Part shown: positions 60,900-64,000 of the stretch, piece by piece
How positions within the stretch are numbered: position 1 is the first letter of the stretch
How the letters are laid out: every line of letters starts with the position of its first letter
Origin: a virus
Virus record (IMG/VR): IMGVR_UViG_3300032242_000818
Location: 100,718-164,717 of that record
DNA: 64,000 bases
Direction: 5' to 3' (one strand)
Notes under the pieces: generated by a model
Databases searched by the model: none
Told to the model about the DNA's origin: nothing
What the model saw: only the letters and a program-made list of their open reading frames with translations
Translations under genes and position numbers: made by a program

Positions 60900-61091
60900 C
60901 TACCATGATCCATCATCCAATACTGCTCTAACAGTTACTGGACCGATATTTAAATAAAATCCATAGTATGCTGGATCCATATCAGTTGGTGTTTGAAAAG
61001 ATCCACCAACTCTCCAGTGATATGGATTTAGTGCAAAACTAATCCATACTCCAGAATATTTGCAGTAATCAAGCAAGGTCTTTAATGTCAT
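60900..61091 (-). CDS. Small hypothetical protein
   Basis: YSGVW...NPYHWR...DDGSW; likely start MTLK. Confidence 0.55.
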   Translation of the reverse strand: MTLKTLLDYCKYSGVWISFALNPYHWRVGGSFQTPTDMDPAYYGFYLNIGPVTVRAVLDDGSW

Positions 61092-61626
61092 CGCATAATC
61101 CCAATTTCTTTGCTTCAATTGCGCTTAACCAAATATCTTGAGGTGGCAATAATACCTCACGAATCTTCGCTTCAGATAATCCAGTACACTTCTTATAATG
61201 CGCAATCATTTTCTTTGTAGTTAAATCAAACTCTTTAACTTGCGCAAATAATTCATGCTCTTTACCAAACGCACCCCATGAATATTGATGACTCAAGATA
61301 GAAGTATTTGGAGTAAGTAAACGATGACCTTTTGCACCAGCAATAAAAATCATAAGACCAGCAGAAGCAACTTGCCCAAGACCAATTGTTCTAACTGGAA
61401 TTGCAGAACCTTTTATCGTATCAATTAATGCAAATGCAGCATTAAGATCACCACCTGGACTTGTAATAATTAAATTAAGTAACTCAGGTGGTTCTTCAGA
61501 AAAGTTTGCTTCAAAAATCCACTCAACAGCAGTCTTAACACTAGTCAGCGTTATTTCTTCCATCAAGAGCATAAAAGAATGTCTTGAATGTTCTTCCTTC
61601 AGCTGCAGATTCATTTTTGTCATCAT
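61069..61626 (-). CDS. clpP: ClpP-family serine protease
   Basis: ITSPGG, GQVASAG (Ser), LSHQ (His), QDIWLSAIEAKKLGLCD (Asp). Confidence 0.92.
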   Translation of the reverse strand: MMTKMNLQLKEEHSRHSFMLLMEEITLTSVKTAVEWIFEANFSEEPPELLNLIITSPGGDLNAAFALIDTIKGSAIPVRTIGLGQVASAGLMIFIAGAKGHRLLTPNTSILSHQYSWGAFGKEHELFAQVKEFDLTTKKMIAHYKKCTGLSEAKIREVLLPPQDIWLSAIEAKKLGLCDDIKDLA

Positions 61627-62137
61627 AGTATTTACCACTTTCTTTATAAAAAATATGTCTACCAATTACGGTAGTCTTTTCGAGTTTCCATCTTGGATTA
61701 ACGTAATCTGCGTGATAGTATAACGCACCTTTTGTTATGTCTTTTAGATTTTCATAGTTAGCATAAACATAAACTGCCACATTCTTAGCATCTTCATAAA
61801 CATCTCTGTTTCGTATAGAAACATTTTGGCAGAACCACGAAAACTGACAAACTGAAGTTGTCTTTTGTTTAACAACTCCGCATATATCTTTTGGGAATCT
61901 AGGATCCTGAGTCCTATTGAGTGTAACAAGAGCAACTGCTTCTTTACCTTCTCTGGCTTCATAACCAGCCTCATGGTAAATATTTTGAGCAAGGCAATCG
62001 ATTTGTTTTTGAGTTTCTTTAGTTAGTTGATTATAACTTACATCGAGTAGAATAGAATCTGAAAACGCATTCTTTGTTAATAATATAATACTGAATAACA
62101 ACAATAATATTGGTATGTATATACGATATGTACGCAT
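61541..62137 (-). CDS. SleB/Hydrolase_2 cell wall hydrolase with N-terminal signal/anchor
   Basis: CLAQNIYHEA, VTLNR, ICGVV, QFSW, GALYYHADYV, IGRHIFY; AAGGAG RBS before MRTY. Confidence 0.9.
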   Translation of the reverse strand: MRTYRIYIPILLLLFSIILLTKNAFSDSILLDVSYNQLTKETQKQIDCLAQNIYHEAGYEAREGKEAVALVTLNRTQDPRFPKDICGVVKQKTTSVCQFSWFCQNVSIRNRDVYEDAKNVAVYVYANYENLKDITKGALYYHADYVNPRWKLEKTTVIGRHIFYKESGKYYDDKNESAAEGRTFKTFFYALDGRNNAD

Positions 62138-62744: not shown

Positions 62745-63262
62745 TTTTTGTCCCTTATGAAATTAAAAGTTACTTCAGGATAATCATTTTGGAGTTTATC
62801 CCAGTTCAACCTCCAATTTACTATTCGTTGTTGTTCAGAATCTGGATTAAAATCATACACCAACGTATTAGTAAAACTCTCAACAGTATCCTCGAACATT
62901 GAGTCAACCCCAAATATATCAAGTTCTGTGTAATCATTTTCGCACATAACCAATGCAGCAACATGACCAGCAGAATAAAATTCAGGATAGTCTGGCATCA
63001 AATCAATAAACAGATTATTGTCAATTATATAGTTTCTAAACCGAATCTCATCAGCAGTACGCCATGCTCTAGTTGTAAAAAAAGCTGGACAAGAAATCAG
63101 TTTAGGATCTCCTACCCAGCGATGTATTACATTACCATCAAGTATAACTGTAGAATTAACTTTAGTCCAAGGTATATTACAACCAATAGTATAATTATAC
63201 TTTAAATTTTCATTAAAAGCAAATCTACTTGGACCATTGCAAACTACTGCAGCCTTCATCAA
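62741..63262 (-). CDS. Sialyltransferase-like (GT42/GT29-like Rossmann fold) protein
   Basis: AVVCNGPS, IGCN, SAGHVA...LDIFGVD resemble Cst-II-type GNGPS and SG...GID motifs. Confidence 0.55.
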   Translation of the reverse strand: MMKAAVVCNGPSRFAFNENLKYNYTIGCNIPWTKVNSTVILDGNVIHRWVGDPKLISCPAFFTTRAWRTADEIRFRNYIIDNNLFIDLMPDYPEFYSAGHVAALVMCENDYTELDIFGVDSMFEDTVESFTNTLVYDFNPDSEQQRIVNWRLNWDKLQNDYPEVTFNFIRDKK

Positions 63263-63826
63263 TTAGAACGAACGAGTGTAAGCAACGTAAGTAGTGTTAT
63301 TAGCACCATCACCACGTAGGCGATCGTAACCAACAGTAACTTTATCTTTTGCAGTTACATTGTAACCTAGTGCATAACGCATTGTGCGCGATTGATCAGC
63401 GTTGGCATCACCTTGGTATGCATCACGATAACGCAATGCTACACGAGCAGTAATATCACCAAACTTAGCATTAACACCTGGCTCCAAAGAATAGTATGTA
63501 AAATCATTTACACCAGACTTTTGTTTAATACCAGTAGCAACACGTAGGTCAGCAGCAACAACAGAAGTTAATTCATACTTGCCAGTTAAACCTGCTTCAT
63601 AACGATTTGTAACAGCATTTGTTGTATCACCAACTGTGGTATAAATACCAGCGTCTACTGCGAATGTATCATTGATAGCAGTTTTTGCTGCAAAATTAAC
63701 GATATGATTTTGTGCTGTATTTGGAACCAAAGGTTGAACACCCCAAGTTGCCGTTACTGAAGACTGAGCAGAAGCAACACCTGCGAAAGCAAGCAAAGTT
63801 GCTAGAAGAACAATTTTAATTTTCAT
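63263..63826 (-). CDS. Small outer-membrane beta-barrel protein
   Basis: Signal peptide ending ASA, alternating amphipathic beta strands, C-terminal Phe (YTRSF). Confidence 0.75.
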   Translation of the reverse strand: MKIKIVLLATLLAFAGVASAQSSVTATWGVQPLVPNTAQNHIVNFAAKTAINDTFAVDAGIYTTVGDTTNAVTNRYEAGLTGKYELTSVVAADLRVATGIKQKSGVNDFTYYSLEPGVNAKFGDITARVALRYRDAYQGDANADQSRTMRYALGYNVTAKDKVTVGYDRLRGDGANNTTYVAYTRSF

Positions 63827-63847: not shown

Positions 63848-64000
63848 AATGGTAGGTTATTCTGTTACGAGGAAACCTACCGAAACCCTAAGCAGTGTTT
63901 AGGCTGCTAATGCGAACTGTGCGTCGTTTGCGTTTACGTTGTTTTAGTTTTTACATCTACTCTGATGAGTTGTCCACTTCTGTACTTGTTGCCCTGTCGA
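63848..64000 (-). ncRNA. ssrA: tmRNA coding piece (5' end outside window), probably two-piece/permuted
   Basis: TCGAC at window edge, PK1-like CATC/GATG + AGT/ACT (63946-63967), tag GCA AAC GAC GCA CAG TTC GCA TTA GCA GCC TAA = ANDAQFALAA (63899-63931), stop codon in AGCAG/CTGCT hairpin loop. Confidence 0.88.

Follow-up and report, generated by a model that had tools for sequence, protein, structure and literature searches.

A complete T4-like freshwater phage very probably carries a working two-piece tmRNA of betaproteobacterial type

At the end of the window analysed here, that is the whole stretch of 64,000 nucleotides from one viral record, we found what is very probably an intact circularly permuted (two-piece) ssrA gene of betaproteobacterial type, which belongs to a complete T4-like freshwater phage and whose RNA would act in trans-translation together with partners of the host. 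The structure of the gene, its conservation among related phages and the covariation of its helices are direct observations of this work. The phage origin of the sequence is well established, as the window encodes a T4-type gp32 (PHROG 224, 1.8e-104) and a gp59 helicase loader, a gp21-type prohead protease is found at G000:C1:106865-107317, and the virus record has a CheckV completeness of 100% with direct terminal repeats. The genome has 37% GC and carries 27 clustered tRNA genes, and its nearest cultured phages by gp32 are the OM43 phage Melnitz (54.5% identity) and the pelagiphage HTVC008M (54.1%), together with cyanomyoviruses.

The sequence-only reading had described the minus strand at the very end of the window as a phage-encoded, apparently permuted tmRNA gene, with a TCGAC, a PK1-like pseudoknot, a resume context, a tag, a stop-codon hairpin and a terminal hairpin, and had noted that neither a T-arm nor a CCA end precedes the next open reading frame. 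Apart from the pseudoknot, which is taken up below, all of these elements were found in their places, and the remark on the T-arm and CCA was correct, the ATG of the next frame lying 24 nt past the terminal hairpin. In fact the window end is the contig end, since the window covers the last 64 kb of a contig of 164,717 bp. The two termini of this contig share an identical 104 bp, which points to a circular assembly of 164,613 bp; window positions 63897-64000 are the same as contig positions 1-104 (the terminal repeat), and a contig position x corresponds to the window position x + 63,896. The gene looked truncated because the circular genome had been opened inside it. With the window alone, neither ARAGORN nor Rfam at gathering thresholds reported a tmRNA, which is an artefact because the contig end splits the gene; when the last kilobase was scanned permissively, RF01850 reached 64.7 bits (E=4e-19, model positions 157-331, the 5' end cut by the window edge), which is far beyond chance, and RF04321 reached 45.7 bits. 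When the ends were joined and the duplicate 104 bp counted once, ARAGORN returned one tmRNA of the class 'Permuted' with both tRNA domains and the tag ANDAQFALAA*, and the T-arm and CCA that had been predicted to lie upstream were found there, 101 nt upstream of GGGGGUG. Moreover, the contig start (L001, minus strand) gives 127.9 bits for RF04321 along the full model (positions 1-213; curated cut-off 47) and, as far as the contig end, 115.1 bits for RF01850 (curated cut-off 84), the overlapping members of the tmRNA clan that it outscored being dropped. The uninterrupted gene can be seen in three viral contigs with 134-138 bits for RF01850 (model positions 1-331) and 128-130 bits for RF04321, two of these contigs sharing the spacer type and two the tag; one of them, L087, matches this phage without a difference from the start of the acceptor piece until beyond the tag. 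Gene order and model scores agree on a circularly permuted tmRNA, with which the apparent truncation is corrected and a well-supported ssrA gene is added to the genome of an uncultured phage.

The whole gene lies on the minus strand. The acceptor piece, of about 62 nt (contig about 282-221), begins with the P2 strands GGUUG (outer) and then UGU-U-CUG (inner) from about position 282, continues with the T-arm GGGAG-UUCGAUU-CUCCC at 248-232 (placed by ARAGORN and the Rfam alignments), and ends at position 221 with the acceptor 3' strand CACCUCC followed by ACCA. After a spacer of 101 nt (contig 220-120), the coding piece of about 165 nt starts with GGGGGUG at contig 119-113 and runs into the window, where its visible 3' 150 nt occupy 63851..64000 according to RF01850 and to ARAGORN on the closed junction. 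GGGGGUG pairs with CACCUCC, followed by ACCA, to give an acceptor stem of 7 bp that includes G3:U70, the identity element for alanine. The TCGAC can be read from the sequence at window 64000-63996, and the P2 3' strands of the coding piece lie within 63968..63996, namely CAG at 63996-63994, GCA at 63992-63990 and CAACU at 63972-63968; according to the structure lines of RF04321 and RF01850, their partners in the acceptor piece are CUG, UGU and GGUUG, and these helices join both pieces. Of the PK1-like pseudoknot of the sequence-only reading, one hairpin is supported: the 4-bp hairpin CAUC-AGAGUA-GAUG is located at the PK1 position (63954..63967) and shows many compensatory changes, its stem occurring among relatives as CAUC/GAUG, UAUC/GAUA, UGUC/GACA, CACC/GGUG, CGUC/GACG, CGAG/CUCG and CGAC/GUCG, whereas the second stem, of at most 3 bp (AGU/ACU), shows no covariation among the relatives and is not supported. 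These comparisons were made by eye on unaligned sequences, the MAFFT alignment of the region being unreliable (43% paired). Further downstream, GUAAAC (63937-63932) precedes the resume codon GCA (63931-63929), the tag frame GCA AAC GAC GCA CAG UUC GCA UUA GCA GCC UAA, which reads ANDAQFALAA*, extends over 63899..63931, and the 5-bp stop-codon hairpin AGCAG/CUGCU (63891..63908) has the UAA in its loop. The last element is the 8-bp terminal hairpin GGUAGGUU-15 nt-AACCUACC at 63851..63881 with a conserved loop (..GUAACAGAAU), which corresponds to the penultimate hairpin of RF01850, is followed by no U-run, and probably closes the mature coding piece at its 3' side. A match to the DUF2815 RNA over the terminal hairpin and the Shine-Dalgarno sequence of the next gene reaches 18 bits where the cut-off is 41 (E=2.3) and was discarded as chance.

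The conservation of this RNA was studied with a phage set chosen by exact match to a 20-mer of the 5' acceptor/P2 region; at least 119 IMG/VR contigs contain this 20-mer, and in at least 111 of these loci, all on uncultured viral contigs, ARAGORN calls a tmRNA, always a permuted one. Among the 80 distinct phage copies used for the covariation statistics, the T-arm shows compensatory changes at 5/5 pairs and is 100% paired, the outer P2 helix is 97% paired with such changes at 4/5 pairs, and the inner P2 helices are 99-100% paired; the terminal hairpin has compensatory changes at 7/8 pairs, and the stop-codon hairpin is 85% paired with changes at 2/5 pairs. In the acceptor stem, compensatory changes occur at 3/7 pairs, G1-C72 and G2-C71 are invariant, and G3:U70 is the same in 80/80 copies. 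The comparison with L087 is especially clear: two double-compensatory swaps in the terminal hairpin are the sole changes within the gene, the flanks are unrelated, and conservation starts and stops exactly at the gene borders, ending right after the terminal hairpin. Because the helices covary and G3:U70 never changes in the 80 distinct copies, the phage tmRNA is judged to be under selection; it varies as a working structured RNA would, with a variable patch in its tag.

As for this patch, the tags of the phage family have the pattern AND-x-x-[F/Y]-ALAA, and the tag ANDAQFALAA itself is also found in 25 related viral contigs. Against L010, the coding piece differs only at tag codons 4 and 5, by two non-synonymous changes (AQ to EL). 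Among phages with otherwise identical coding pieces, these two codons read AQ, EL, EQ, EK, SQ, SV or NV, among others, the rest of the tag being fixed. Such variation could reflect relaxed or diversifying selection on the part of the degron that binds the adaptor.

Concerning transcription, a sigma-70 promoter TTGACA-17-TATAAT with 12/12 matches, the sole 12/12 promoter of the region, is located upstream of the acceptor piece at contig 319-291 on the minus strand. The last helix of RF01850, a rho-independent terminator hairpin that the bacterial members have, is deleted in this gene, and there is no terminator on the minus strand between the tmRNA and the next open reading frame. This frame of 187 aa (63263..63826, minus strand, ATG at 63826) has no Pfam or PHROG match, and its product resembles a small outer-membrane beta-barrel protein because it has a signal peptide and a C-terminus ...YTRSF; it lies directly downstream of the tmRNA in 22/99 related loci. 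Since no terminator separates them, the tmRNA and the 187-aa frame are probably co-transcribed as one unit, and the 3' end of the RNA would have to come from processing. The first strong intrinsic terminator downstream, with a 15-bp stem and then seven T's, is found at 63084..63120 on the minus strand, which is the probable end of this unit. Moreover, an assembled contig of 149 nt from a freshwater metatranscriptome matches contig 102-250 without a difference and covers the T-arm, the entire spacer and the 5' acceptor strand; it would be expected of a precursor transcript, and DNA carry-over could explain it as well, assembled contigs from public runs being records of sequence and not of RNA ends, strand or expression level. 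Small shares are also seen in numerous aquatic metagenomes, freshwater and other, four runs being used as evidence on habitat.

The spacer between the two pieces merits particular attention. Most phage copies have spacers of 59-138 nt, that of this phage being 101 nt, against 24-45 nt in bacteria, a range that leaves out a few ARAGORN outliers and two longer spacers of 61 and 114 nt. The ends of 72 distinct phage spacers pair in one register, position i with position -(i+4), in which 90% of the cells are paired as compared with 39-54% in all other registers, and many compensatory changes are seen at spacer positions 4-11; the closing stem in this phage has 11 bp, and the bacterial spacers form the same hairpin with a small loop. 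The loop itself can be exchanged. For example, L119, which shares about 98% identity with this phage and the whole of its mature RNA, has the middle of the spacer replaced (61 vs 101 nt) with breakpoints 8 nt after CCA and 12 nt before GGGGG; more spacer swaps between the same flanks are seen in DNA runs from the source study. Taken by its pairing pattern, the phage spacer consists of a stem that covaries and of a loop that is enlarged and can be exchanged. The spacer of this phage holds no open reading frame (the frame used by relatives has a TGA) and no Rfam match, and its fold as a whole is not unusual (z = -1.1, the fold having been taken one base off register, L001 221-121), the closing stem being the one part that is supported as structure. 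The two longer bacterial spacers just mentioned, of 114 and 61 nt, are those of L259 and L260 (genomes G198 and G193) from a low-GC bacterial genus in which the relatives have 29-38 nt, and with these two species spacer expansion extends beyond the phages.

A number of relatives (L009, L040, L061, L069, L085, L013, L035, L072, L067, L063 and L088) have a mini-ORF inside the spacer, which in most cases is preceded by a Shine-Dalgarno sequence of AAGGA type and starts at an ATG placed exactly 11 nt behind the CCA. One of them encodes a CPxC...HKC peptide, which occurs in two variants an in-frame 6-nt indel apart; the others encode hydrophobic peptides of 22-41 aa, one basic peptide of 43 aa and one of 61 aa. 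The insert of about 80 nt in this phage has identical counterparts in L010, L044, L087 and L108, and between L044 and this phage there are 11 differing sites in the mature RNA and 0 in the spacer; an insert that stays identical beside a differing mature RNA could indicate constraint or recent transfer. It is conceivable, though we consider it improbable, that the excised spacer serves as a cargo slot and that the insert of this phage is released as a separate functional small RNA, an idea suggested by the loop swaps between near-identical phages, the mini-ORFs of relatives, the sharing of the insert across differing RNAs and flanks, and the match in an RNA library.

From these elements a scheme of action can be proposed, in which we infer the processing, charging and tagging by the phage tmRNA. 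The perfect sigma-70 promoter would drive a single precursor made of the acceptor piece, the 101-nt spacer and the coding piece, from which RNase P and the 3'-end processing enzymes of the host would remove the spacer, and the two pieces would stay paired through the acceptor stem and P2. The alanyl-tRNA synthetase of the host would charge the CCA end, the identity being given by G3:U70. By analogy with established trans-translation, the RNA would then enter stalled ribosomes with host SmpB and EF-Tu, add ANDAQFALAA and free the ribosome, and the tagged chain would go to Clp proteases. The likely gain is that ribosomes are kept free, and perhaps amino acids recycled, while the phage degrades host mRNA or nucleases of the host cleave messages. 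The phage genome encodes neither SmpB nor a ClpX zinc finger nor SspB, and with SmpB missing the function of the tmRNA relies on the SmpB of the host accepting this RNA. Also counting against the scheme are the lost terminator hairpin, the unsupported PK1 pseudoknot and RF01850 scores far lower than those of the bacterial members.

Downstream of the tmRNA, by 2.2 kb and on the same minus strand, the phage encodes a ClpP homologue (61069..61665, PF00574, 6.6e-30) that keeps the Ser-His-Asp motifs when aligned with ClpP proteins of solved structure. Where the flank of related loci is long enough, a ClpP lies 1-2.8 kb downstream on the same strand in 35/68 cases; other conserved downstream neighbours, again counted with enough flank, are ORF114 in 59/84 loci and a cell-wall hydrolase in 60/72. 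The side upstream of the tmRNA is variable between related phages. It holds here a Bug/TctC-family periplasmic binding protein (PF03401, 1.5e-30; L001 1028-1993, minus strand) and a class-I glutamine amidotransferase/peptidase C26 (L001 2066-2614, minus strand), which look like host-like accessory genes in a variable region.

A tag ending in ALAA is a degron of the ClpX type, and the tmRNA and the phage ClpP might accordingly form a tag-and-degrade module whose main role would be to win amino acids from incomplete host proteins for phage synthesis, beyond the mere rescue of ribosomes. This is possible, but we hold it doubtful. The intact catalytic triad, the recurrence of the neighbour in the related loci and the ALAA end of the tag all speak for it, as does the fact that the homologue is not the head protease, because a separate gp21-type protease is encoded elsewhere; amino-acid recycling has also been proposed by the authors of the Melnitz study (PMC9004378). 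However, the pairing is found in about half of the loci, the phage encodes neither the ClpX zinc finger nor SspB, at least one terminator separates the tmRNA from the ClpP gene, and a literature search for a link between phage tmRNA and ClpP brought up nothing relevant; what ties the two genes is their nearness, which is weak evidence.

Somewhat less likely still is a device of counter-defence, in which the tmRNA would rescue ribosomes on mRNAs cut by abortive-infection or toxin ribonucleases of the host, beside the 27 tRNAs as replacements for cleaved tRNAs of the host. The full tRNA set and the strong early-type promoter on the tmRNA are in its favour, and freeing ribosomes from truncated mRNAs is what a tmRNA naturally does. 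Yet the idea is a matter of pure inference, no defence or anti-defence gene is tied to the locus, and general ribosome rescue fits the same facts. That the gene is instead a non-functional leftover, be it a captured copy of a host ssrA or a disused former integration site, is hardly credible, for although tmRNA genes are common integration sites with fragments in prophages (PMC9004378; PMC11915505) and no SmpB is encoded, the gene lacks no part and has a consensus promoter of its own, is kept in more than 110 contigs in which the helices show compensatory changes and G3:U70 is invariant, is 100% identical from the acceptor piece to past the tag between phages with unrelated flanks (L087), and belongs to a lytic T4-type phage, its 20-mer being absent from 185,579 species genomes.

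Turning to the origin of the phage tmRNA in trans-translation that we favour, the signature 20-mer is absent from 185,579 prokaryote species genomes (one per species), which argues against a recent capture and means that no recent donor can be named. A looser motif occurs in at least 120 bacterial genomes, and nearly all of the matches listed are Rhodocyclaceae-type betaproteobacteria with the tags ANDERFALAA or ANDEQFAIAA; in an even sample of the betaproteobacterial order, 4/151 genomes pass the RF01850 cut-off. One genome flagged as unpublished (G029) was left out of every statement. The same order contains a low-GC group (G068, G178 and the genus of G179, with genomes of 1.6-2.9 Mb and a locus GC of 36-44%) whose tags are ANDESYALAA, ANDENFALAA, ANDDKFALAA and ANDEKFALAA, and in one low-GC genus the gene is present in 10/10 species. 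RF01850 gives 250-300 bits for the high-GC Rhodocyclaceae type, 142-171 for the low-GC group and 115-138 for the phages. In a maximum-likelihood tree, the phage, high-GC and low-GC copies each lie on one side of a branch with SH-aLRT 97-99, the sampling of phages by the exact 20-mer and of bacteria by motif being one that favours tidy groups, and the nearest bacterial sequence to the phage clade, from the low-GC genome G068, is reached by a long path of 1.43 changes per site. As placed by this tree, the phage copies are a clade of their own, distinct from every sampled bacterial copy.

The proteobacterial host that had been read from the tag style is plausible. It agrees with the betaproteobacterial type of the RNA and with the tags of the low-GC group, whereas the deep clade of the phages and the precedent of Melnitz, by which the tmRNA type of a phage can differ from that of its host (PMC9004378), count against it; this precedent calls for caution in inferring the host from the tmRNA type. 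The Bug/TctC-like neighbour is uninformative as a host marker, with 25-34% identity to both the low-GC and the high-GC groups. It is nevertheless of wider interest that freshwater T4-like phages hold a large clade of betaproteobacterial-type two-piece tmRNAs, which bears on host prediction from phage tmRNA and tRNA genes and on the question why lytic phages invest in ribosome rescue. Moreover, experiments could start cheaply from the enlarged spacer with its exchanges and from the ClpP gene that is often found nearby.

The closest known system is the two-piece tmRNA of betaproteobacteria, which was reportedly described by Sharkady and Williams in 2004 and which we compared in a sample of Azonexus, Dechloromonas, Thauera, Azoarcus, Propionivibrio, Accumulibacter and Cupriavidus. 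Phage and bacterial genes (RF01850) have the same order of acceptor piece, spacer hairpin and coding piece, the same helices, the motifs GGUUUCGACAGGG and UAAA-GCx-AAC-GA, the loop of the 3' hairpin (..ACAGAAU), the tag style ANDxxFA[LIV]AA and a sigma-70 promoter at the same model place. They differ in score (115-138 bits in the phages against 250-300), in the separate clade and longer spacer of the phages, in the lack of the terminator hairpin in the phages, and in the setting, a phage genome of 37% GC against a high-GC chromosome. The low-GC group comes nearer, being by tree path the nearest bacteria to the phage clade, with similar spacer ends and a similar 3' hairpin loop, and it shares the tags ANDESYALAA, ANDENFALAA and ANDEKFALAA with members of the phage set; however, it stands across a well-supported branch, keeps the terminator hairpin and has spacers of mostly 29-38 nt.

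Among cultured phages, the Synechococcus phage BUCT-ZZ01 (ON615601.1) from a lake, of 156 kb, has a homologous betaproteobacterial-type permuted tmRNA (L002 2274-2674, plus strand; 94.5 bits for RF01850 and 111.9 bits for RF04321) that is missing from its public annotation. Like the tmRNA of this phage, it has a long spacer (111 nt by ARAGORN) and no terminator hairpin, but its tag is ANDETFSMALAA and its branch in the tree is long. The reported host of BUCT-ZZ01 is a cyanobacterium, which is an odd fit with an RNA of betaproteobacterial type. The same phage has a tRNA with a CUA anticodon at L002 1164-1239, which ARAGORN labels tRNA-Pyl. The OM43 phage Melnitz and related marine myophages are, like the present phage, T4-like aquatic myophages with a permuted ssrA behind an early promoter, and in Melnitz too no SmpB is reported and the same functions are proposed (PMC9004378); its RNA, however, is reported as alphaproteobacterial-type with a glutamine riboswitch in the 3' domain, whereas that of this phage is of betaproteobacterial type and no riboswitch was found in it with Rfam.

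Two-piece tmRNAs of phages are already published, and the basic phenomenon is known. In 18,146 phage genomes, Buchholz et al. 2022 counted 133 distinct tmRNAs, of which ARAGORN classed 53 as two-piece, and aquatic phages contributed 50 of the 53 (PMC9004378); a tmRNA database of 2025 holds 79 distinct phage sequences and notes, as spacer contents, a tRNA gene and a repeat element, though not open reading frames (PMC11915505). To this picture the present analysis adds a phage-specific clade of betaproteobacterial type, an expanded and exchangeable spacer loop, the loss of the terminator and a recurrent ClpP neighbour.
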